A stretch of DNA of 38,556 bases, taken from Catajapyx aquilonaris (Eukaryota). The position numbers and the translations under genes are program-made. The stretch covers positions 1 through 38,556 of the forward strand of contig KZ538966.1 of assembly GCA_000934665.2 (NCBI GenBank), read 5' to 3'. A model generated the notes under the pieces. That model worked only from the letters and a program-made list of their open reading frames with translations, searched no databases and had not been told where the DNA came from. Positions 12,342 through 30,900 of this stretch are shown here, piece after piece (position 1 is the stretch's first letter; each line of letters begins with the position of its first letter).

Positions 12342-12416
12342 CTAACCTACAACAGCTGATGTAGCCATTTGATTGACACCACAGGTGCCATCTCCTCGAT
12401 AAACTCGGTAATAACC
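12342..12416 (-). CDS. CTSF: Cathepsin F exon 16 (terminal)
   Basis: cttgcag acceptor; [24 protein letters not shown], then TAG. Confidence 0.95.
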
Positions 12417-15400
12417 CTGCAAGACAAGAAAGATAGCATCAGATACTACTGTTACATGAAATCTACAGTCCATGAAAACACATTCATTAATGCAACTACA
12501 TAGTGTTACCTGTTCACCCCACTTTGGCCCCCAACTGTTCTTAATCACCCAGAAAGGCAGGGTTTGTTTGAACAAAGGATACTCTGCAAGTGGAAGTGCA
12601 AAGAAAGATTAGAATGGTAAGAAAGACTGCTCACCTTCTCTCCCCATGATGTTCCCCAACTGTTCTTGATTATCCAATATGGCTGTATCTTATGCAAAAA
12701 TCGAGTCTCTGTAAGAGATGCAGGTCACTTTGGTTAGTCATGCACTTGAGAAATTAATTTATGGAGATTAAAGGGTGACACAAAATAGATGTAATTTCAC
12801 AAGGAACAATTGTGACAACGAAAATACACTAGCCTACCTCCTAAGAGTCTGACATTTCCACTTCAACTTGACCACATAATATGGGTTCTTTTTAGCTATA
12901 CAGTATTTATTAGTGGGATTTCCCTCTGCCAGAGTCGGGAAGACCGGGGCACGATGGCTACAGGGACACGATGGCACAGTCAAATTTTTGAAGAGGCTAT
13001 TAGGTTCACGGACATGATGCTTATGTGGTAGGTGCAGATAGACATGCTCCACATTACATCCTATTTTCAATTCAATTGCAAAGACTGTCGGCAGCAGTAC
13101 CGATTTTTTCCATTTTGGACCATTTGAGTAAATTTCAATTTCCTACCAGTATTTCTTTTTTCTTCCAACTGACGTGCTCGATCACTGAGCTCAATAATGC
13201 ATTTGCAAGGCATAATATGCCTACAAAATGACAGCATAAATGGCCATTTAATATTTGTCACTCAAGAGCAGGAGGACTAGAAAGATTTTAAAATGCCTAT
13301 GGGGCACAATGGCACATTTTGTTTGGAGCGCCCTACCCTGTACCTTTGTCATGGACACTTTTTAAACTTCGTTGCATCTCACAGTCAGCCTCCTTGGACT
13401 GGCCCACTCTGCATTGCAGAGTAGCTTTTGCATTTTTCAGATTCTGTCATACTCAGCCTTTGATATTATTGAGTTAATACACTCAACTCCAGATATAAGC
13501 ACTAGAAACCCTCAGTTATAGCCAACTCAATAGGCTGGTCTGGTCCTTTTGGATATAGGAAACCTTGGTAATTGGATACTGATTTCCATGGGGGTTCCCT
13601 CAAAGTCTCTTATATCCAAAATCAATTATTGTATTAGCATCTAACATTTCTGATAACTTCTAAATGCAAATGTTTGTAAGGAATTAATTAGTAAAAAGCA
13701 CGTTAGTACCCCGAAATAGTAAGCACCTCAATTGCAACAGATTGTTTATGCACAGCAGGACGGAAGCAATCACACTGAGTTCTCAAGAAAAATCCATAAC
13801 TATTCCCACCAAACTATAATAGTTTGGTGGGAATAGTAGTTATGGATTTTTCTTGAGAACCCAGTGTGATTGCTTCCGTCCTGCTGTGGATATATACAAT
13901 CTGTTCCAATTGAGGTGCTTACTATTTCAAATGAAAGGCATTGAGTTAACCAAGTCTTCATTCAGCATAATTTCCCTCAATAAATATGCTACATATGATG
14001 GTGTTACGGGGGGAAATCAGGTAGTAAGAAAATTATAGGAAAATTACATGTACGTACTGTGAATTCCATATCCCACAATAAGGACACCATGGTCCAAGTT
14101 TGCAGGATTGCAGAGAAACTTCAGTGGATGGGAGACACCTCCAAAGTAAAACTGAAATCATAAATAGCTATTGCATTGAGAGACATCACCATTATGGTGA
14201 CTAATATAGACAATATAGAAATCTCATATACTGTACTTTTCATGACACTAAATTCTTTTGAGAAAAAATAATATCCAGGCCTACTTGGTACTTGCAATCA
14301 GTACTTCTCACTTGTGGAAAGTTTTAAAACGTGCATGTCACAGGTCAGACATAAGGCGCAATGAGATGGAGGGTGACAGTCACTGTCATTCAGCACAAAT
14401 CACAAGAATGCCATGCACTGATTATTAGTGGGAGCCGAAAAGAAACTGCCTCCTGTCCCCCTCTTTACTTGGGCTGAAAAATACTTTTGAATTGTTCCAA
14501 AATCTTACATCCCTAACTATCACCCTATCAAAGCCCATTAGTGAGACTGATTATTATCATCATCAGTTTGTAACATTACACAACACATATGGCATAACAT
14601 CCTCACCTGCATTGCATTTGCATTTATGCCAATAGATATGGGTCCATTAGCGACAAGCCACATTGCCATTTCCGTCTCATTCTTGGAAATCTCCAGGAAA
14701 TCAGTCACATTAGCCTTCACGCGAGATGCATCAAAATGACACTTTTCGTCATCTCCCTCATATGGGTAATCATTTTCTGTTTCCAGTCCTCCTAGCTTCT
14801 CAATAGCCTTGTATGCATTTTCAGGAAGCCCACCCCGACAGCCTTCATCAAGTGTGTCACAGTCCACCAATTCTGCGAAGAAGGTTTGCATAGCCACACA
14901 ACTGCACACTTACTTGTAATGGAGTCACATGCACCTCAAAACACTAACCTTGTTCAGAAAAGCTTAGAAGTTTCTTGTGATGAATTGAGTACTGGCCTTC
15001 AATGTTTCCAGTGACAGAAAATGCCCAACAGGAACCGCAAAAACCTTGATTCTTTATAGGAGTCACAGCATTGTATGCCCTCCAGTCAAACGACTTTGGG
15101 AGTTTCACACTTGGAATAGCAGCCTGGGTGGAAACTTGATCATTTGGCTTTAATTCAGGTCTCAGGCCTAATAACTGACGGAATTCTTTGGCTGAAAGAT
15201 TACAATGTTTTAGAGCCTGAGGTAGTACACATGGATTAGATATTCTTACATGTCAGGTCAAAAAATTGTGTAGCTCCATACTTTGCTGTTCCTTGCTCAT
15301 TTTCTTGCAATATGGCCACCTTTCGCATGTTGGCACGGAATATTTTAAAACGATACTGATATTCCTTTTCAGAAGTGTATGTTTTTTTATATTTCTTAAC

Positions 15401-18400
15401 CAACTGCTTGAAGGCACCAATATGGCCCAAATCATGACCATCCTGACCCAACATTCTCTTTTGTTTCTGAAACAAGAAAGGTAGAGAATAATTCTTGCTC
15501 TGCAAAGTAATGGCATTCCAGTGTAAATGAATACAAACAGAGATCAGATCAGATTATGCAATGTGATGGTATTTTGATATTCTCACCACAGATACATGTT
15601 TCTTCTCTGGTGTACATGACATGTTGGTGACACGCATGTCATTAAGCCAAGGCCTGTCCCAGATGGTCACAGTACACAGCTGCAGTGACTGAAAGAAAAT
15701 AAAATTACATTAGGCCTTGCCTTTCAAGTTCACTCACAGGAAGTACCTTGTTCTTAACAGTAAGGTTTTTGTTAGGCCTGTGTTTGTAGATTTAGAAAAA
15801 TCATATGACACAGTTGGTAAAGAAAGTTTGTGGGAAGTGGAGATTTTGCAAAGGTGTAATCTGTAATGTTCAAGAGATTGTCATGGATAAGATATTCTAA
15901 GATAGTTTGGCTATGTGAAGAGGAAGGAGGAAGAATAAATTGTCACAAAGACTCATTAAGGTTGAGTTGTTGGTAAGGAGGGTAAGGGCAGGCCTAGGAA
16001 GACATGGATAGATCAGGTGCCCAAGTATCACAAGTGTAAAGGAGGTTTCACAAAAAGATTTTGCGGCAGTGTCAAGCGGTGCGTGTAACTCGTCGCAGTG
16101 CAGTTCACATAAAATTTTTGCTGTGTCGCAGGGCTTTGGGCGCGACAAATATGCCGGGCGGCGAGAACAGGCAGGCCACAATTTGCTTCGCGTTTTACAT
16201 GCCCCAGCCAATGGGAAAGCGTGGATGTCGGTCACGCGGTGCTCCTGCTTCTCCAGCATCTTTCATTTCCTGTCCCTGCCCGTGGGGGATGCCAGGTGTC
16301 GTAGGGGTCTGTAGCATCGTAACTCTTTTTGTGTTTGGACACGCGGCGAACAGAGGTGATGTGTTATTTTTGAAGGGACATGAATATGCTACGCGCCTTT
16401 TTTTTGTGAAACCCGCTTAAGGGCGAATCTAGTTTAAATCTAAGAGGGACTTGACCTCTTTGCTACGAGATAGGCCTGAACCACATAGATTTCGCCTTAC
16501 GCGTACTCCGAAGATACGCACAAAATATTTTACAAATAATAACAGCTATACTTATCCAATCAGGGAGAACACTATGAATGTGTCTGGAACAATAATTTTA
16601 CTCGTCTAGAAGTTTCTAAATAAATGTATTATTATTTGTTATTATTTGTCAAATATCTTGTGCGTATCTTCGAAGTACATGTAAGCCGAAATCTATGTGG
16701 TTCGGGGCCATTCAGTAGCGAAAGGGTTAAGCAACACCATGAATATGCATATGAAAACTCCAAAGGGAATTGACATTAAGTTTGATAGATATTAACCTAC
16801 TTAATTATAAACTACCAACCTGAGTCTGGTCAACTGGACATGATGCAATGTCTTCCTGCTTATTCTTAGCACAATTTGTAAATCCAACCTCCATAGTCAC
16901 AGTGACCTTGTAACCTTGAACAATCTGCAAAAAAAACAAAGGAAATGGTGAGTCAATGTTGGCAGCCATGTCTGACTGTGAGTACAGGAAGTCTGGTATA
17001 TGAATGGGAATATGCTCCTGAAAATGTCTAAGTCAGATTTTTTTTTTTAAAGACATTTTTTAAAAATTTTGTAATGCCCAGTGATTGGGTCAGGGGNNNG
17101 GGGGGGGGGGGGGGTGGAATACCATCATTTTTTTCAATCGATTTGTATGAAATTTTTTCTTCAATTCCCCAAGAAAGGACATGAAGTAGGGACGGGGATT
17201 TCTGGGAAAGAGACATGGGTGATGGTGCAATGTCGTTATGCTGGGGTGATGTGCAATCCCCCAGGAGGTTAGGTTGCCAGACACCTCCAAGGTGCTGCTC
17301 CGAGACCCTCCTGAAGCAGGCGAAAGGGAACTCCCGGGCAGGGTTCGAACCCAGGACCTTCAGCTCAGCAAGCCAAGCGTTACCGACTCGGCCACCACAC
17401 CTCCCAGTCATGTCTAAGTCAGATTTACATGTAACTCAGATTCTTGATGAACAGAGCATGTATGGCAATAATAATAGCTGCTAGCGTAAATATGCTGCAT
17501 GAACTGCTTACGCCATGCGCATTTGTTTACATGCGTGGAAGTAGTTCCCAAATTATAAATTTAATCGTACAGTATTAATGTTGCACTTGGTGTCAGTCAA
17601 TGTATGCATCAATGATTGAGAGTGGAGGGAACATTATAAATTATAATTATGGGGAGTTTTGGGAGGTCCTTCGTAAGTACGGATCACCATAACTCGGGTT
17701 GTTTGTAAACCAGGGACTTCTGAACATATCCACCAATGAAAGACATACCAGTAAAGATGATTGTTGGCCTCTGTCACTACCCTGATTTCATGAAACTATT
17801 TTTTCATGAAAGCCCATACTCTGCCTATCAATTAGAGCTTATTTCAAATCTGGCTGCAAATACACTTGGAAGGAAACTACAGAAACTCAGAAAAAAATGT
17901 TAAGACTGAAGGCCCATTCAGACCATGTCGCTCTCAATGTCATGTATCTAATGCATGTGCAACTTTTTTGTTGGCAGAAAGCATGTGATCCAGAAGCATC
18001 ACCTGAACCATGCTGTGAATTCCAGCTTGCAGCTCCCCTGACTGAATTAAACCTGGAACTATCTAGTTCCAACATTCCCACCAGACATTGATCAACCCCA
18101 CTCACTTCTCTCTCCTCAAATCTCCCCCACACCTACACCTTGCAGCCAGGTGGATGCGTGAGTTGGGCACACAATTTAAAACATTCTTTAGAGGCGGCAT
18201 GTTGGCTGTGTACACTGCTCAGGCAGGGTGCAGCATTTATCAGACAGGTTCAGGGTCAGAATGCTGCTAGGTAACTCCAAGATGGTGGAGCAGGCACGGC
18301 TGTGCCACTTGGCAGCAACTGAATTACAGACCACGAAGCTATGGGGAACAGAGGACCCCAGAGGTGGAAGGCAGTGATGTCAGCCACTACACCACCAATC

Positions 18401-21400
18401 AGTGAGCCTGACTCCATTCACAAAGCTAACTTGTGATTACCAGAATGCTAGTGCTTATGAATGCCCACAAAACAGCAAGACTTACTTGCTTGGTTGCTCC
18501 AATAATCGTAACTAGTTTCATTTGGTACATGGAGTTAGAAGCTCCATTTACACGTTTCATTGCATGTTCAGCATACTTCTGGATGGAGTCATCATTTGGA
18601 TTCACTTCTTGCACTCCGCCAGCCTAAAATGCAAACCATTTAGTATGTAACACCAGACACCAAACCCAATATACTTGGATGCTCACTAAGAGGCTTCGTC
18701 GCTGCCTCTTATGCTTCAAAAGCTTGGTTGGCTCTTCATCCTTGGGGCCACACATGGAATTAACAAGTCGTTCCTGCTTGGGTAGCCATGGCTGAACCAA
18801 AAATTGAATATTGCACTCCAGAATAGGTGGAACTAGATCATTCATGCAAGAATTACTTAGCAAATTGCCCTCCTTGCAAGTGCTGTTACCCACTTCAAGC
18901 TTCAAATGGTACAAAAATCCTGCCATGACCTATAAAAAAATTGTCATATTTCAAGCCATGTCAATAACACAACATAATAAAGGCTGACTCTTTTAAAACA
19001 CAACCAACACATTTGACTGCAGATTGTGAATAGTTAGGCAAAATGTATCAGTAATATATGGAGTCATGCCTTGTCTCAAGCTTAACCCGCCACCTACAGC
19101 AAGTGTACTACACATATAGGGCTACCAGTAAATAATCGCCTTTTATATTTCTGTGCATAAGTTCACTTACTGGAACATTACAGTACAGTGCTGGACATAT
19201 TAGCAGTCCCTAAATGTTTACTTAGTCGCCAAGTAATGCCAGCGCTGCCAATGCCAAAAATAAACACTTAAGGACTGCTAATATGTCCAGCACTGTACAT
19301 ACGCATTTCATACTCCATAGGCCTACATCATGAGGTCGTCTAAGACCAAGGCAGTTACAGTGGATGTTCTTCCATTATTTCTTGCTGTTGTTGAGACATC
19401 AACAATAGTTATGTTGTAGCTAGTGATGCCTCTAATTTAGTTCGAAGCGCAGAAAGAGGAGCTTGAAAAGTGCAGTAACACTTGAAGAGCTTGGGTGCAA
19501 AAGTGCCTACTATCCATTTATTTAATACTAGCAGGTTACCCGGCGTTGCCCGGGTATGTTGGGGTGCTGGTAAAGATAGGGGTACATATATTTTAGGAAG
19601 TTTGTTTGTAAAGTTTGTGTTCCATCCACTCGAAACTTGATATGCCTTAAAACAGGCCTTATAAGTAACAATTAGCCAAAGTTTGTCACTATTTGTGATA
19701 GATTACCTCCTTCAGTCATAGCGTAGTCGACGCAGATATGCTGATTGGATGCATAGAAAGAGGGATGCAGATAGATTTGGCCCAGAAAAATTCTGTGCAG
19801 CCATGTGTTATTTCCGTCGATACATTCGCAAAGTAATTCGGATTATAAACAGCCGAGATAACAGCGGTGTGCAATTAACTTAATTATGGTTGCAGGAATG
19901 GTGATCTCAATGTTTCAAATCTATCATTAGATACACAAAGATGTGCACTATCGAGGGTTCACAGGTGGATTTTTTTGGCCTCCTGAAAGTGTCATTAAAA
20001 ATTCACTTTGCGGGGTAACGTCAGCAACTAGTCAAAAAATGACACTTTTCCGCCTTCTTTTTACAATAAAAAATTAGAGACTGACGATAGGAAAACACCT
20101 CGCATATATGTAACATGGATTTAAACAAGCTTTCTAACGATACATACCATTATTTTTTTTAAATAATTTGCCTGGGAGTTGTTTAGAGTCAAACACAGGG
20201 CTCTATATTAAATAAACGGATAGCAGGCACTTTTGCACCCGAGCTCTTCACTTATGCCACCATGTTGACTGGTTAGTCCTTAGAAAATGGAGTGGAGGGA
20301 CTGGAAGATTGAAAGTAAAATTTGTCAAGTGATTTACAGCAGCCATTCCCGAATGGTGATGCTGATGGGGGAAGATGGCATAAAACTATGGTGTGTTCAT
20401 TTTATGGATCAAAAAAATTACATGCTTTTCTCAGGTAAAACAGGCAAAACCCTACTCTATACTGGCTGATCCCACCTTACACCAGCATGTCAGTGTAGCC
20501 ACCAGACATGTTTTCTCAAATCTGGTCAACCTCATTTTTACCGACATATTGCAGATTGCAAGGTAATATGGTAATAGTCAACTCAGGATAACACAGGATT
20601 GATTTTTTTAGACAATTTCAATATGAACTGACAAATGCAATTCATGATCAGCAGCCAAATAATATGTTAAGCTACTTTTCAAATGACTCGACCTGCAGTT
20701 ATACTGACCTTTTCCTTCGCCTTCACTATATTCAGGACCACTCGAGCTCTGTCATCTTCATCAATTTCATCCAAAAGTTTCATGGCCTTCTCAGAATAGT
20801 GCTTCAATGTGTCATTGTCCACTGAAACTTCATGCCACTGCCCATCATTCACCTTGGCACTTCTTTCTTCGCGTTGTATGTCCTCATCCTCTGTTTGCTG
20901 GTTACAGTCTTCCCAGGTCACCACTTGGGATTTCTCCCAAGAGCATTCTAAAATATCCACCATGCATGTGACTGGCTTGTGGGTTTCATCCAAAGGACAT
21001 GAGTTGCGATCCTCGCCAGAACGGCATACTGTGTCCCCCAGCTCCAGGGTGAGTGTGTATTTAATCCCAGAAACAACCTACCAAAGGAAATGCTGCTATA
21101 CAGAGATATGTGGCAATATTAGCCTATTTAAATTTTAGATGGTAAACATTCCCTGTCTCATGGCACATAAAATTAATTAAGAGCATGGTCCTGTGATTCA
21201 GGTCACAGACTACCACTTCTGAGATCTTTAGTTCAATCCCCATATTAAGCAATTGATTTTTTTATGTCGGGGATATTTTTGATGGATATTCTGTGTGTTA
21301 GGGTGCGTTTAGCTTATTTTGGGACACTCTTCGTACGTAAGCGCAGGTCTTTAGTTAGCATCCTTTTTAGAAATCACCATATACAGTGGAGCATCAATTA

Positions 21401-21867
21401 TCCGAACACCGATCAACCGAACCATCGGTTAACCGAATGTTTTTGGGTCGGCAAAAAAGCCGAGCCTCGGCTCTCAAGAAAAAGAAATTGACCTTTTCCC
21501 CCCCAAAACTGTACGACTACTTCATGTAAGGACAGTAAGGTATATGTACAGTATTTTTAAGACGTGCCTGTGACAGAAAATTTACAGTTTTGTGGTTAAT
21601 ATCACTGTTTCTTAGTTTCATATTGCTCCTATGACACCGGTACAATTTTTTTCGATCATCCGAACAATCAGTTATCCGAACAACCCCTTGGCAGACTCTG
21701 TTCGGATAATCGATGCTCCACTGTACTAATATCTAAATTAACTGAAGCAGTTTGGTGGAGTGGATAAGGTGTTCGACTGATGCTAATCGGGAGGTCCTGT
21801 CCCCTGCACCGGATGGTGGTATTCCACTCCCCTAACAGGGCCTAGGGCCCTAGCGCAGGGTACAACC

Positions 21868-21929
<62 letters not shown>

Positions 21930-24900
21930 CAATAACAATAATAATAATCTAAATTCACCTGGATTGTGTACTTGAATATTTAGACCCACTGCATAGGCAC
22001 CATTGAAGGCAGCCTATCGATTGAGCATGAAATGGCTGTTATTCATTGTTGGCAACAATCATGTCCGAACCTCGAAAATTGTTCACAAATCTGGGACAAT
22101 TATTTTTGTCACACTTGAATGCAATTAATATGCGCAGACATGACTTTCTATGGTAGAGAACAAGTTCATGAATCAAATAAAATACCTAATCATGATATCA
22201 GTCACATCTGATCAGATTGGTTGATGATTAAATCATGCGTTTTTTTTTTGCTAAAAAGTTTAAATTTTTAATTATCAGCAGTATCATTTTTGCACTGTCT
22301 GTTTGGCTGCTCCAAACTGGTTCCAAAAACCCTGGAGATGTCCATTTAGCTCTGGTGTAAGCCTTGCGGCTACACCAGGTTGCATCTGTTTGGGGATCAG
22401 AACTAGTTTGGTTACTAAACTTTCACCAGGTCCAGAGGTGGTGGAAAAGGGGAGTGGCCATATCAAATATGGCAGTGGTTGAGGTTGGAAATTCAGATTT
22501 CCAAGGTACAGTTGAGACTAAGAAGGTGGGAGTCACCGGTCCACAAGGTTAGTTCTCGTACTGGTGGCGGTCAAGAGGCAAAAGGATATAGCAAAGGGCC
22601 ACTTACTAACAAGCAAGCCACACACACACACACTTACTCAAGTTCAGTGTTTAATAATCTTGGACGCTGGCTTCCAGAATCCAAATGGAACTCCGAAGTG
22701 AGTCAGTCGCCCAATTCCTCAATGTTTAAGGACAATTTGCAATTGTGCAGTAAGCAAGTCTTCCGTAAGACCTTCGGAGTGCGTTAGTGTTGTGTATTGG
22801 CAGCCAGTAAGAAAGGAGTCTGTTGATGAACAAGCAGATGTACTGTACCAAGTACACGTGAAAGATGAGTCCAGAGATCCATTAATTAATTCCATTAATT
22901 CTGTGACAGGTTAGAGCACTGCAGCCAACAGAAGGCTCATTTCGGTTGGTTTTGCCTCTCATGGTTGGCCTTTTTGGATTGGCCTTCTCTTCCCACAGGG
23001 TTTTTTTTTATTTTTGAAGGTTACCACCTTGCCACCCCTTACGGGGTATTCGGGGGGGGGGGTCATCTGCACCCTACGAGGTGTGCATTAGGCAACAGTG
23101 TTGGTAAACAGGTTGGAAATTTACAATGGGAGCCTAAGGGCTGCTCCAGAACTAGTTCAGAGCAGAAAAATGTACAGCACTAAGATTGATGAGTTACCCT
23201 AATTTACATGCTTTCAGGTAAAAAACATTTACTATTTTATCAATTGGTTTGGTTAAAATAAATGAAAATAACTTATTCAACATATGGGTGCACAGTCTAA
23301 GTCAGTGGTTCCCAACCTTTTCAGGCCTTCACACCCCTTTGAGAGCAGTTGGTCCTTCTCATACCCCCTACCAGGATGACAGATTTACCAAATCCTTGAC
23401 ATTTAACAAATCCGTGATAATCGTAATAACTACCGTATAATCAACATTATTTTTGGGACCAGGAATATGATGAAGCGAAAGAAAATTAAGTAATTTTTTC
23501 GATTATAATCCAGCTATATTATCCTTTGTGCAAGCCACTTATCGGTTATGCTATGTCCAAAATTGCTCGGTTTGGACTCAGGGGCACTTAGCTCCGTACC
23601 CCAAGGAGGGGCACCTCGCACCCTCTGGGTACACCCTCTGGGAGTACGGGTACCCCTGGTTGGGAACCCCTGGTCTAAGCGTTGGTGAAATGGGAGCTGC
23701 ACGTGCCTGATCATGACCATTGTTCACCATGTCATTACAGAGCTGCACCAGTAAACTGATTTCACTCTAGGGGCAGGGAGCAGATGAGGACTCACTTTTT
23801 GCTCACTTGCATGGAACAGTTTTAACCCCTTGACAGAAGTATCTTTCAGCCTGGCATCAGAGGCATGGCAAAAAAATCCTACCTGATTTGCAGTGATTCT
23901 TTCTGTTCTAGAGTTTCGCCACATGACATTAGTAAAAAAAAGGACAAGTGTCAGGGAGTTCCATGTTTTGTCTTGAGACCCAATCTTCATTCAAAATTGA
24001 TCAGAGAATCATTTGTGGTTTCCAGATACAGCTATTTTATCATAATCCAATTCAGTGATTATTCAGTTAATGCACAATGAAAAACATCCCTTAGCTTAAA
24101 TGTATTGGTGTATCATCTACCTTCAGTGATGCAACCAAACCGGTCTTGTAGGTCAATTTCACACATGAGCAAGTGCCAATCATAGTTTTTCTGCCTCCTC
24201 CAGGACTAACCTGAGTAACGGCATTCACAATCCTCGTGACTTTCCGGATATTTCCATCTACAGCATTATCCAGAGTCTCAACTGCAAAATCAGCCAATTC
24301 CCGAAACTTTGGGTCATTAGGGTCACTTTGAACAGGACAACCAGCACAGACAGCTCGCTCAGCCACAATCAGCTCCTCCGTCACAGGCTCCCTAAACAAA
24401 CACACAAATGTCAATATAAAATATAAGCCTAATGCACTGTAGGTAAATAAACAGGCTTGTGGTGTGTGCACCTTCAGTGCAGTGCACGTGATAGATGTAG
24501 CCGAGGCTAACATGAAGAGAAAGGGTACTGTACTGAAAGGTACTGTTCATCTTTTTTTTAAAAAAAATGGCAAATGATGTTAGACACAAGCCTCACTTGA
24601 GAAAATGTTCCCTGGAGCCAGAGAAAGGTATTTGTCCTCAGCACAGGAAGGGTGGGTGGGGTGAACACCCCTTAATTAAAATCAGGGGTGTGGTAATCGA
24701 ACGTGCATCAACTGATGGATTATTTCGGTTTATGTGTATTTTCCGCATAATTCGACACGGCTGTGCTGAGACGAATGGTGACCATCCCCCATATATGGCA
24801 GTCACGTAATTTGTCCCATACTTAAACCGAAATAATCCGTCAGTTGAAGCACTTTTGACATTTCTCCCTCCTACCATTTTGAGTTGTTTTTGGCCAACAA

Positions 24901-27873
24901 GTACACTTATTATAGAGGTGTCCACTTAGAGGTATAATAAAAGAAAAATTCATAACTTACAAAGTACTAGTTGTAATGACGGAAGCTGTGTGCCAGGTTA
25001 AAGAGCAGATATGAATTTTTTTTTAAAATGTCTAATACACTTCAACATGAACTCCACTGGTAGCGCAGCAAAGGTCAAACCGGAAGTCTGCCTCAACCCA
25101 TGCGTTGAGAAGCATTTTGGGGTGTTACCTTTTCAATTGCAACGCAAATTCTGTTGCGCAAGTCTGCCAAATTATGCACCTGTGTAGGCTACACCAGTCT
25201 TTAACTAACCACAACAGGAAAAAGTTAGGTAGAGTTAGGTTTGGTCATNNNNNNNNNNNNNNNNNNNGGGGGGCATGGAAAAAAAAGGGGGGGGGGACCT
25301 GTGATTTTGCACTTCAAGACCTCACACCAATCATTGCATTTAGGAGAATCCCATTTGTATTAATGAAGTGTATTAGTATATTGAGTGAATTAGGTATGTA
25401 AAAAAAATATTTAAATCTGCTCTTTAAACTGGCGCACACCTTCTGTCATTACAACTAGTAATTTGTAAGTTATGAATTTTTCTTTTATTATACCTCTAAG
25501 TGGAACACCCTGCATACTGCTGGCTGGACAACATATCAGTAAGAAGCACCAAATGTGTGTTGTTATGCAATAATGAGTCAACCCACATGAGATCAGTTTC
25601 GAGAAAAAGGGCTTTGAAGTTCATACCTGTGAAATTAATTCAGTGTTCTCTTCGGTCAGTTATGGCAGAAGTATGCAGATTGCGCCAGCATGATTTTAAC
25701 TGAATGAAGTAGGATCCTTTAGGTATATGTTCCTGGGCATAGCTCAATTTTGACATTTTTGTGGGTTGACAAATTATTGCACAACACCATCCAAATATAC
25801 ACAGGTCCTCCCCCTACCTCTTTCTCCTACCCATATCAGCCTGTCTTTTTGGCAGGGTCTAGGTTTATGGGAGGGATGGAGAAGGTTTTCTATAACAATC
25901 ATACTTAGGCTGCTCCACTTCAACCAATCCTTCATCATTTAGTTTGCCTTCCATTTTGCCTCTTACATCATCAGCTGGTAGGCAGTTTGGTCCATCAAGA
26001 AAAATAATGCTGCTCTCCTCTTTGTCAGTGATCCATGGTCGTTTCCAGGCCATCATGTTGCACAAGTAGGTACCACGTGACTCATCAATTGCACATTCAC
26101 TAATTGGAAGAGCTTGACCTTTGTGCTGCAATGAATAATAGTATGAATACATAGTTATTAACACGTGACAAATCATATAACAAATCATGTTAGTCATAAT
26201 TTGATAATTTGCTTTGCAGGTAAATAAAGATTCATTCTGGAGGTGCAGGGGGGATGTATATTACATTTTTTCTCATGGGACAGGCCAGCAACAGGGCAGT
26301 TTCAACCCCTTAAGGGCAGTATCAAATTTTTGTTTAAGTATTTTTTATTTTTTGCATTACCCCATTGGGATTTACCATATCCTTTAGGAGGGTGGCTTAC
26401 CACCATCAGAAATTGGAGCCATATAAGAAGATCTTAATTAATTACTCCAGGGTAGGTATGAGGGGATGTGCAATGTCTCTAAAGGCCAAAACACAAAAGA
26501 TTTTGCGGCAGTGTCAAGCGGCAAACGCCTGCCCCGCCAATTATTATTAATTATTGGCAATAACAAATATAAATAATAAATTTGCCGCGCGTTTTTTTTT
26601 TGTGAAATGGCCTTAATGGTCATTTTGCGAGCTCCCCCGGGTGGCTTAGTCTGTCGGAAATTGCCACCCGAAGTGAAGCCAGAGATGGCCCAACTCTGCA
26701 AGGATAAAGGTGGGAACCCCGGGTGGGGATCGAACCTGGGACCTTAATATCCGTGGGCGCGTGCGTTACCTTAGCGCCACTTCACCTCCCCGTTAAGGGC
26801 AGTATCAATAAGGGCTGGGCAAAGTACTGCAGGATTACGTGCATATAAGTCTGTCGCGTGCATACCGAATCGCCTACAGAAATTGACGGAAAACTCTGGT
26901 TCCTATATGTGAAATTTTAAGTTCGCAGACAAATTCTCCCATTTCAAGTTACAAAATAAAACTTGTTTCATGACAATTGAGCAATATTTGACAAAGTTAT
27001 TACATGTTTCAAATAGGGAGTTACTTTCCGACCACCCTGTATATTGGACGCTGGGAACAAATGAGTTAAAGGGAGTATTTCGTTATCTGCCCTTTTTAAA
27101 AGGAGCATTTTGTGAAATGGATGGTTTGAAAAGGGGTATTTCGTGATCTGCCCATTTTGAGAAGATCATTCTGTGAAATGGTCGCTTCTTTCGCTCAATG
27201 GCCATTTTCGGGGTTTGCACCTAACACATACAATACCATCCGTACTGGGTTTTTTTTCCAGCAAACCACTGCAGTGGCAAGCACGGACTTAATTCAAGCT
27301 ATTATGCTGACCCAACCAACTGTTACAGGTTAGCACAGAATCAGTTGTCACAAATGTGACAAGATATAAATAATCAGTCAGAAGTAAACCCAAAGATCTT
27401 TCTTTTCTGTGTCAATAATATCACATTCAATCAGTTGAACTGACTGTGAAAGAGAAATAGGTACAGCATGGCATGAGGAAGCATCCTATAATCTAGGTAT
27501 TGTTCCACACACATAAAATTTAAAACACTGACTGGGCCAATTTTGTCCCGAACTGAAGACGTTCTAGCCCCATCCAGTGTGACTCCACCTTTGCCACACT
27601 TTAATAGTAATCAGGGCGACACGGTGGCGGAGTGGTTAGCGCCACAGCCTTCCACCTCTAAGGTCCCGAGTTCGATCCCCGGGTCGCGCAAAGGATGCTT
27701 ATGTGGATCGAGTTTCGATGGGTTCTCTCCGTGTTCGCGTGGGTTTTCTCGGGGTTCTCCCGTTTCCTCCCGCAATCAAAATCCATCACATTACAGGCAA
27801 ATGATTAAAGTTCATGATTCAAAAGATGATCCCCTAAGAGGTCCAAGGGGCCTATCACGGGGTATCCATTTTG

Positions 27874-27933
<60 letters not shown>

Positions 27934-30900
27934 AGTAATCCTTATCATACATAATATCAATGAGGCCAATGAATTTAACTATATTTCCTGGATGCATATT
28001 AGCTCACCTTAATACAGAATGTGGCGGCAACTTCCAGAACAAGGTTAGTGATAAATCCATGTGACCCCGGTACAAGTGCATTTTCAGCACTCTTCACATT
28101 AACCAGCGACTGTTGAAACTGTGATGGTGAGTAGTGATTGATATACTGCAGGGCTCTCTGAGTGACCTCATTCACTTCTTCGAGTGTATTTGGCCCAGGA
28201 GCATCTTTCTGCTCATTGTCTAAGGCATAGCACCAGTATGCCCCCAGCAGGTGCTTCCCTTCCATTTCCACCTCACATGTTTCAAATCCTAAATCATCAC
28301 TACCACTCTGACTACTTCCAACTTTCAGAGTCATGTATATTTTTCCAGATGATTTCTGTAACAAAGGGCAGCTGGTATCAACTCTTAACATTAGCAACAA
28401 ATAACCCTCACCTGTAATCTTGCAGCCATAATATCTACTAAATCCTTCTGCCTTCCCATCTCCCTAGCTTGAATCTCTTCTACAGCAAGTTGTGCCATGC
28501 TTCGAACTGCATCATTCATGTCTAATGTTTCTAAACCATCATTGTGGTTGAATGTAGTATCTCCATCTCCAACTTCTTTTTCCACACATTCCGTGCCTTC
28601 TGCAACAACTTGACGCAAAGGCAACCAAGGCTGATCCCACACAACTACTCGACATATTTTTCCCCTTGACCCCAAAACAGTGTGGACGTCTATAGTCAGG
28701 ATGTACTTTGTTCCAGCAACAATCTGAAAATGAAACAAACCAAATCAAACAATCTGGATATCAGCACATTCATACCACATTGTATCTCATTAACTTAAAG
28801 AACTCGCATCACGCTCATACTTAGGGAGATGCAGACACGCGCTAACTGATGGGCACTTGCCATGTAAAAACTGATGTTTTTATTAATGCACTATCCAATC
28901 ACTTGGGAGCATGGTGGCCCAGTGGCTATGCTACTGGCCAGCCAAGCAGGAGGGCAGAGGTTAAAATCACATCCTATCACCGTCATTTTGTTCGTTCTTT
29001 TTACACTTTTCTACCGACATCCAGACAGATTTGCACTCCCTTCTCTGCTGAAGGCAAAGAGAAAAACTCTGGTATTTCATGGATCCAAAATGACCCAAAA
29101 ACTACCCAGGATCCCCTTTGAGAACCTTCCCCCTCCCCCCCCNCCCCCCATTTCAGCAATTGTATTCATGTCTAAACAATAAAGGTTCATGCAATATACC
29201 CACAGGGGTGTAAAAACCACCCAATATTATCGTTAGTGCTAGACTGCTAGTAGTAGTAGTATTTGTATGATGACTCTCTTATCACTAGACCTTTATCCCT
29301 GAAAGATAACTTCCACAACTAGCGTGTGAAGTGTCAAACTCGGTCATCACTTTCACGCAACAATGGTGGCCTTCAATAACTTGAGAGCTTACTCAGTAGA
29401 TGGTGCAATCCATGTTATGTTTTCATACATTACCAAATAAAATTCTATGCCTATACTTGCCCAACACCAATGAAGTTCGCCTCGCACGAAAATCACCTGC
29501 ATGTCAATGTTACAAATACGGTTACTTGAGAATGAATCATGTGTTAATCACACAACTTATATGCTAATGAGCACATGGAAGAGCAATGTTGGGGTGAGAT
29601 ATCAATGCATTTGTCAGTGGAACAAGACGAATAGGACAGTATTTATTTGGCGCACCAGGGGCAATGGGAGTTCGCCCAGAGCGCTAAACACCCCACAAAA
29701 CAGACTGATGCGATTGTGCCAGATAGGAAAAAATGTGCAGGTCTCTTGCCCTGCGCCACAATGCCATTACTCATTACACTCTGTGTCTGAAAATAACAAT
29801 CACGGGAGGTGGTAAGCCCATTCCTCCAGAGGTATGCAAGGTGATATGGAAGAGCTCTGAAGAAGGAAAGTCTGCGTATGTGGTTGCACAAGAAGGGTAT
29901 GTGCCATGCTCAATGGTAAGGGGCATCGCATGAAGTAACAAAACTACAAGAACCATCCAGAAAAACCTTATTATGGACGTAACCAGGCAACAGCAGCAAG
30001 GAAATACCACGCGGTGAGAAAAATTTGGGTCGCAAAATCGGCAAAAGGAGCAGCGACCATCAATTATAAAATGGTCAGAGGTGACCCAAAAGGTGGTCCC
30101 CACAACAACATGTTGACTGCATCGTGACATGAAGATGAACTTTTATGCGTAACTTCTCAAAGACTAACGGGGAATTCATGAAATCAGAACCTGGCCTCTT
30201 GACAATAGGACAAGAAACCACTCTTGATGGCACTGGAACAGGAAAAAGACTTGCTTGGGAGAAGGAATGGAAGCATTGGGCTCATCAGATGTGGAATTAG
30301 GCAAGTTTCGCAATGAATTAGTCAGTACAGGGACATCCATAATCGAGTACTGCAAACAAAGGAAGAGGTGTACCATCCCAATGTCTCACTAGAACCGTCA
30401 AACATGCACACAGAATTATGGTGTGGGGATGCATGGTAGTAGGCCTTGGCAACTTTCACGGCATCAATGGCACCATCGATACAGGCATGTTTCAGGAGAT
30501 TTTGAGAGACCATCCGCTGTGTGCGCCCTCAACAGCAACCTTACATCCGGATGTCAATGTAATATTTCAACAGGACTTTGCATCTTGCCAACACACCGGA
30601 AGCAGACAAGGGGATTGATATTCTACGTGGCCATCGAGGAGCCTGGACCTCAATCCGATTGAGACAGACTGGAAAATCATGAAGAAGGTACTTCAGAGGA
30701 AACATCCTCGCACCAAGGCATCCCTTGAGGGGCAAACTACAGGAGCTTCGGGACACCATCACACCAGCTGAGTGCCAGAGCTCATTCAACACGTCGTGTT
30801 GTGTGGAGGCCGTCATTGCTGCCCATGGCGATGTCACCTGCTTCTAGGCGAACTTTGTGGCGCGTTTAGCACTCAGGGCGAACTCCATTGCCCCGGCACG

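Follow-up and report, generated by a model that had tools for sequence, protein, structure and literature searches.

Few kinds of alternative splicing carry a strong functional prior, and mutually exclusive tandem exons are one of them. Exons 2 and 3 of alpha-tropomyosin and exon 17 of Dscam belong to such tandem sets of homologous exons, with less than 50 nt between donor and branch point. Smith and Nadal-Ginard in 1989 and Yue et al. in 2013 reportedly traced the exclusivity in these genes to a branch point too near the upstream donor. In the human cathepsin F gene, we know of no alternative exon. A multicystatin cathepsin F-like system with cystatin-like repeats, an I29 domain and a peptidase domain was the subject of a 2010 study, and the accessible part of the paper citing it (PMC4398375) makes no mention of an alternative exon. 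The stretch of DNA analysed here, termed the window, comprises 38,556 nt of contig KZ538966.1 from Catajapyx aquilonaris. With high confidence, its minus strand is taken to contain the 3' end of a long arthropod gene for a multicystatin, cathepsin F-like cysteine protease, in which the small exon for the end of the His strand, the adjoining hairpin, the catalytic Asn (in KNSWG) and the Trp-Gly-Glu loop behind it is present in two tandem copies, 15a and 15b. One or the other would be spliced in, with two full-length proteases of equal length as the result, and the old duplication appears to have been kept in both copies by selection.

The gene appears to share the family architecture of the 2010 system and differs from it, as far as the accessible part of PMC4398375 goes, in its alternative exon. 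With alpha-tropomyosin and Dscam it shares the tandem homologous exons and a putative donor-branch distance below 50 nt, whereas its mechanism is deduced from lengths alone. The closest likeness is found in annotated cathepsin F-like/CG12163 isoform pairs (Schistocerca, Periplaneta, Procambarus, Hyalella X1/X2), which have the same exon, the same two types (A and B, see below) and the same A-B order as the window but are gene models from other species. No paper among those listed by a full-text literature search describes the exon pair. The initial annotation of the window knew of no functional study.

Anatomy of the exon pair

The gene lies on the minus strand. Exon 15a (12708..12635) is the upstream copy and of type A, exon 15b (12583..12510) the downstream copy and of type B; both measure 74 nt. 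Exon 15a has the acceptor cttacag/AG and the donor AAG/gtgagc, exon 15b the acceptor cttgcag/AG and the donor CAG/gtaaca. They are preceded by exon 14 in the numbering of the initial annotation (14151..14058, 94 nt), which encodes FYFGG, carries the catalytic His motif and stops one base into a codon (CAC A/gtacgt), and followed by the last coding exon 16 (12416..12342) with a TAG stop at 12344-12342. Both copies are entered in phase 1 and left in phase 0. As both start with AG, the junction codon is AAG with either exon. The intron between exon 14 and 15a comprises 1349 nt (12709..14057), that between 15a and 15b 51 nt (12584..12634) and that between 15b and the last coding exon 93 nt (12417..12509). 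The upstream introns of the same gene measure 455 and 76 nt, so that 76 and 93 nt are the other short introns. The 93-nt intron is in frame, stop-free and part of an open reading frame (ORF; 12342-12608); its retention would add 31 residues without truncation.

A pyrimidine-rich tract that runs up to cag precedes each copy, and a GT donor follows each. Upstream of the 15a acceptor, a branch-like motif gactaac is found, and the 15b acceptor is preceded by a long pyrimidine tract. The 51-nt intron contains a single branch-like motif, CTAAT, whose A is located at distances of 26 and 25 nt from donor and acceptor, respectively. Since 74 is not divisible by 3, the frame is broken whenever both exons are included or both are skipped: 15a plus 15b would lead to a stop within 15b, and the absence of both to a frameshifted tail with its end slightly beyond the regular stop. 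The reading of the minus strand thus bears out the exon structure originally proposed, i.e. tandem 74-nt exons with phase 1 in and phase 0 out, intact GT-AG sites, translations as written and a frameshift with both exons or neither.

The two copies are alike at 47 of 74 bases and 12 of 25 residues and differ at the remaining 27 bases and 13 residues. Five of the 12 shared residues differ in their codon, and the codons for K-N-S-W are identical. Hence, the initial annotation was right in that KNSWG is kept in both exons and overstated its case in speaking of many synonymous differences. When the entire 38,556 bases were scanned in six frames, NSWG was found at two sites only, 12653-12664 in 15a and 12528-12539 in 15b. 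Either exon alone matches the peptidase family PF00112 at profile positions 180-197/198 of 220, with 28.9 bits for 15a and 30.3 bits for 15b (cut-off 20.7). A chance resemblance can thus be dismissed. The catalytic residues are the same in both. Most differences fall between the His and Asn strands, in addition to two residues after KNSWG: 15a encodes a basic, His-containing hairpin (Thr-x-x-x-His-Lys) and 15b a hydrophobic one (Tyr-Pro-Leu-Phe).

Two exon types in arthropod cathepsin F-like proteases

The 24-25 residues around KNSWG were sorted by a pattern drawn up for this analysis, in which type B starts with x-Y-P-[LMIV]-F and type A with x-T-[STKR]-[IYF]-x-H-[KR]. Applied to 345 homologues, it yielded 161 of type B, 102 of type A and 2 with A followed by B. 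Another 26 were classified as others, mostly molluscs with a shorter loop, and 54 were without the motif. The exons of the window fall on different sides of this division. Out of 25 residues, the average number shared by 15a is 16.5 for ten named type-A segments and 12.4 for the type-B partners of these; 15b shares 12.7 and 17.7, respectively, with the same ten pairs. Since fewer residues are shared across types than within a type, 15a and 15b appear to be orthologues of two old classes and not a recent local duplicate. Both have kept the hallmarks of their type, T..H..PYW in 15a and YP.F..PFW in 15b. The His in the 15a loop, to which attention had been drawn early on, proved to be one of the type-A hallmarks: It is present in nine of the ten named type-A segments and replaced by Lys in Diabrotica.

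Do other species express the two types from one gene? As isoforms are hidden in clusters of 90% identity, the cluster members were listed and records of equal length compared. In public annotations, 30 equal-length isoform pairs from 25 species differ solely in the KNSWG segment. They come from a springtail, mayfly, Orthoptera, Blattodea, thrips, Hemiptera, Decapoda and an amphipod. In a first set (Zootermopsis, six Schistocerca, Periplaneta, Frankliniella, Cryptotermes and two Gryllus), all 12 of 12 pairs have 10-12 differing positions, every one of them inside the segment. Similarly, the difference is confined to the segment in two pairs from Cloeon and one from the springtail Allacma. A set of crustaceans and hemipterans contributed 15 of 24 equal-length pairs that differ only there, from 11 species (Procambarus, Cherax, Penaeus vannamei, P. 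indicus, Homarus, Panulirus, two Macrobrachium, Hyalella, Nilaparvata and Lycorma). The other nine pairs of this set differ in N-terminal regions, and in one of them, Procambarus P0297/P0203, the KNSWG segment is affected as well. In addition, the beetle Diabrotica has an A-like and a B record of unequal length. Differences restricted to the N-terminal part were seen, for example, in Homarus (P0194/P0307, 197-253), Procambarus (P0289/P0297, 55-170) and Penaeus indicus (P0329/P0333, 87-190), and may reflect other alternative exon clusters in the same gene of decapods.

Single gene models that include both exons show the order A then B in Ephemera danica (P0160), Cloeon dipterum (P0173) and Petrolisthes cinctipes (P0209). 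The Cloeon model is 22 residues longer than the single-exon isoforms, and this extra length would be consistent with a donor located 8 nt into exon A; at the corresponding position, no GT is present in the window. In Nilaparvata lugens, a type-A product (P0322) is named 'seminal fluid protein' in its source, possibly a hint at the use of type A. The assumption that one gene makes two proteases by means of a mutually exclusive exon pair thus gains support from the isoform pairs of orthologues. Furthermore, the early suggestion that similar pairs occur in automated insect annotations and might be old has been substantiated by the 30 pairs from 25 species, which include crustaceans.

A scan of metagenome contigs returned 80 loci (L numbers). 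Among them are intron-free contigs in which either type A (L002-L005, L009) or type B (L001, L006-L008, L016, L018) is joined directly to the last exon; most simply, these are assembled transcripts. In the genomic contig L070, a type-A exon of 74 nt is followed by an intron of 43 nt and, at the contig end, by the first part of a type-B exon, so that the order A then B is common to L070 and the window. Single-type loci exist, too: L021 (ant-like) has B only, fused to the last exon and located behind a 564-nt AT-rich intron, L052 has B only, and L053 has only an A-like exon, fused to exon 14. Since these three are single-type in genomic DNA, loss of one copy does occur in some lineages.

Among the chelicerates sampled (scorpions, spiders and horseshoe crabs), only B-like segments were found. 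The representatives of Lepidoptera and Diptera sampled have type B only; as isoforms are merged in 90% clusters, this does not prove the absence of A. Pairs occur both in Malacostraca and in hexapods. Therefore, judging from a sample without myriapods, the duplication is older than the split between these two groups.

Synonymous and nonsynonymous changes were compared for each type over 72 in-frame bases. For type A (window and seven loci, 28 pairs), the proportion of differing synonymous sites (pS) is 0.89 and that of differing nonsynonymous sites (pN) 0.22. For type B (window and eight loci, 36 pairs), the corresponding values are 0.88 and 0.17. Distances to the orthologues are similar for both exons of the window, with pN of 0.14-0.25 for 15a and 0.14-0.23 for 15b at saturated synonymous sites. 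By this measure, with synonymous sites saturated and peptides preserved alike, both types are held by selection. Selection on both exons had been postulated in the initial annotation, and the check per type (pS about 0.9, pN 0.17-0.22) is in line with it.

Proposed mode of exclusion and rival explanations

According to PMC5740500, three devices can make exons mutually exclusive: incompatible splice-site types, a branch point less than 50 nt from the upstream donor, and frameshift, the last being the commonest feature of such exon clusters in the human survey reported there. In the window, steric exclusion by the short A-B intron is the preferred mechanism, at roughly even chances, because the whole intron has 51 nt, the branch-like motif is located 26 nt from the donor, and the intron in L070 has 43 nt. 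A 51-nt intron would leave at most about 26 nt between donor and branch point, too tight for two spliceosomal complexes, so that double inclusion would be blocked. The length of 74 nt would act as a backstop, with the products of both exons or neither out of frame. Incompatibility between U2 and U12 splice sites was considered and rejected: The donors GTGAGC and GTAACA are ordinary GT donors, unlike the U12 consensus.

Three other explanations have to be weighed. The exons could be true alternatives whose exclusion is brought about by regulators or by RNA pairing that masks one acceptor, while mis-spliced out-of-frame products are lost. We regard this as unlikely, albeit a serious contender. 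In intron 14, the stretch 13414-13430 is complementary at 15 of 17 positions to 12573-12589, i.e. to the 15b acceptor and the first 11 bases of 15b; it may mask this acceptor or be a chance match, and a rough estimate gives about 0.1-0.5 such matches by chance in 1.9 kb. The 344-nt exon cluster, however, folds no better than shuffled sequences (z = +0.77, with 75 of 100 shuffles at least as stable), and the short A-B intron recurs with 43 nt in L070. In favour of this reading, isoform X3 of Schistocerca nitens (P0134) is annotated as skipping both exons and ending in a frameshifted tail without the catalytic Asn segment. If this model is correct, exclusion is leaky in at least one direction. 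Similarly, the predominance of frameshift in human clusters, as stated in PMC5740500, would suit an exclusion that relies on loss of out-of-frame products. Intron 14 also harbours a nested palindrome (13713-13928) with arms of 56 nt (96% complementary), 37 nt (95%) and 19 nt (100%), which looks like a small inverted-repeat element.

Alternatively, one of the exons might not be used in C. aquilonaris, being a silent or decaying duplicate, and a single protease would be made. The lack of transcript support for this species would agree with that, and so would the single-type loci L021, L052 and L053 elsewhere. Yet, 15a and 15b have both retained an open frame, AG and GT sites, a pyrimidine tract and a branch-like motif. 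Moreover, each keeps the hallmarks of its own type, and the pN values to the orthologues are similar at saturated synonymous sites, which makes a dead copy improbable. More improbable by far is a duplication that arose as an assembly artefact or from two alleles collapsed in tandem. It could be suspected from the tandem arrangement as such, and the window contains three N runs elsewhere. Two copies of one sequence would not be expected to differ at 27 of 74 bases and 13 of 25 residues, and the first of these figures serves to exclude the artefact. In addition, each copy matches a different conserved class of orthologues, and the A-then-B arrangement is found again in the unrelated contig L070. 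The duplication, about which the initial annotation had voiced this concern, stands.

Several points weigh against the preferred reading, i.e. a functional pair kept exclusive by its short intron. Nothing in one sequencing run of unknown kind, which comprised 0.22 of the sampled words, covers an exon; four contigs from this run, with 90-99% identity, all map to intronic repeats (12970-13620) and are silent on expression. Consequently, the use of 15a or 15b in C. aquilonaris is what we infer from the DNA. Most isoform pairs of other species are automated gene models. Among the metagenome contigs, a pair of A and B from the same organism was not found, as flanks with more than 90% identity were present in 0 of 66 compared pairs. 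Retention of both types is not universal. The steric threshold of 50 nt comes from human data, the branch site is a motif guess, and some animals splice introns of about 50 nt. Finally, the placement of the variable residues in the fold, considered in the following section, derives from papain-like structures in general.

Host gene and possible roles of the two isoforms

The peptidase domain belongs to Peptidase_C1 and contains the Cys, His and Asn motifs whose residues have the catalytic role in papain-family proteases. PF00112 is matched by four separate exon translations. Upstream of exon 14, with LDHGV at 14083-14097, the peptidase and propeptide exons extend over 14607..15553. They comprise an exon encoding ELVDCD...NAMQ (14872-14607), separated by a 76-nt intron from the exon with CGSCW (15192-14949, motif at 15025-15039), and an I29 propeptide exon within 15251-15553 (PF08246, E 2e-12). 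A GCRGG motif is also present in the gene. Cathepsin F propeptides have an ERFNAQ-type motif rather than ERFNIN; the propeptide of the window reads E...R...F..N...V..Q, with V where ERFNAQ has A.

In the N-terminal part of the gene (15554..28726), there are exons with similarity to the cystatin repeats of multicystatin cathepsin F-like homologues. Three such homologues gave collinear minus-strand tblastn matches from 28726 down to 15575, and QxVxG motifs were found at 16913-16927 and 28712-28726. The sole N-terminal piece scanned against Pfam (28005-28343) matched no family. For the 89-residue exon, 583 relatives were obtained with a best identity of 80%, many of them long and equipped with cystatin, I29 and C1 domains. 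Some are named cathepsin F, cathepsin F-like or cysteine proteinase CG12163 in their sources, many others cathepsin L or L-like. The type-A homologue P0007, used as query in place of the window protein, matched human cathepsin F with an E value of 8.5e-61, the next family with 4e-37. In a maximum-likelihood tree of 28 peptidase domains, the window sits on a long branch without resolved placement; its best identity is 73%, to Schistocerca, and none of the named sequences sampled is a close relative. Assembly gaps (N runs) at 17097-17099, 25249-25267 and 29143 lie within the span of the same gene. At the other end of the window, the first 2 kb are richer in G+C (0.50-0.56), and the motif context PYQMVFGREAKLPEDLL on the minus strand at 1538-1552 resembles a retroelement integrase remnant.

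In which way might the two isoforms differ? The initial annotation considered specificity, pH dependence, trafficking and sensitivity to the gene's own cystatins as possibilities. The closest solved structure to the type-A homologue P0007 is human cathepsin F (PDB 1M6D). It shares the catalytic motifs with arthropod type A but lacks six residues that the arthropod proteins have between GYG and P-[FY]-W, the region of greatest divergence between A and B. Molluscan homologues have the short loop form, as does human cathepsin F. We take the variable stretch to be the hairpin that links the His strand to the Asn strand of the papain fold and has its tip directed away from the cleft. The pair of residues that follows KNSWG is presumably nearer the primed side. 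In cathepsin L, the equivalent loop is the site of the cut into heavy and light chains. Single-sequence AlphaFold2 predictions for the pair from Macrobrachium nipponense were unusable, with a mean pLDDT (AlphaFold's confidence score) of 38.2 for type A (P0344) and 39.3 for type B (P0340). The isoforms would differ in a surface property of the hairpin, basic with His versus hydrophobic, and not in catalysis. Since 15a and 15b encode the same catalytic residues, surface recognition, processing or stability is more likely to be affected than the chemistry.

The exon pair can be regarded as real, ancient and probably functional. It appears to be ordinary in its mechanism, and it is visible in gene models of at least 25 species yet apparently unstudied. 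A bolder version is tentative, and we give it somewhat less than an even chance: The switch would be more than 500 million years old, predate the Malacostraca-Hexapoda split and be absent from the sampled chelicerates, the two enzymes would have distinct biology, and exclusivity would be built in through an intron of sub-minimal length (43-51 nt), kept short for this purpose. If this is true, the distinct biology might concern e.g. autoprocessing or two-chain cleavage, handling by the protease's own cystatin repeats, or tissue-specific secretion.

For gene annotation, the pair explains recurrent mis-models in which both exons are included, both are skipped or the reading continues into the intron. 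It also offers a simple natural test case for intron-length exclusion. The swapped piece belongs to the catalytic core of a cysteine protease, lysosomal or secreted, which apparently carries its own inhibitors as a fusion, and both versions have been retained from shrimps to locusts. What such a protease gains from two hairpins beside the catalytic Asn is a tractable question.

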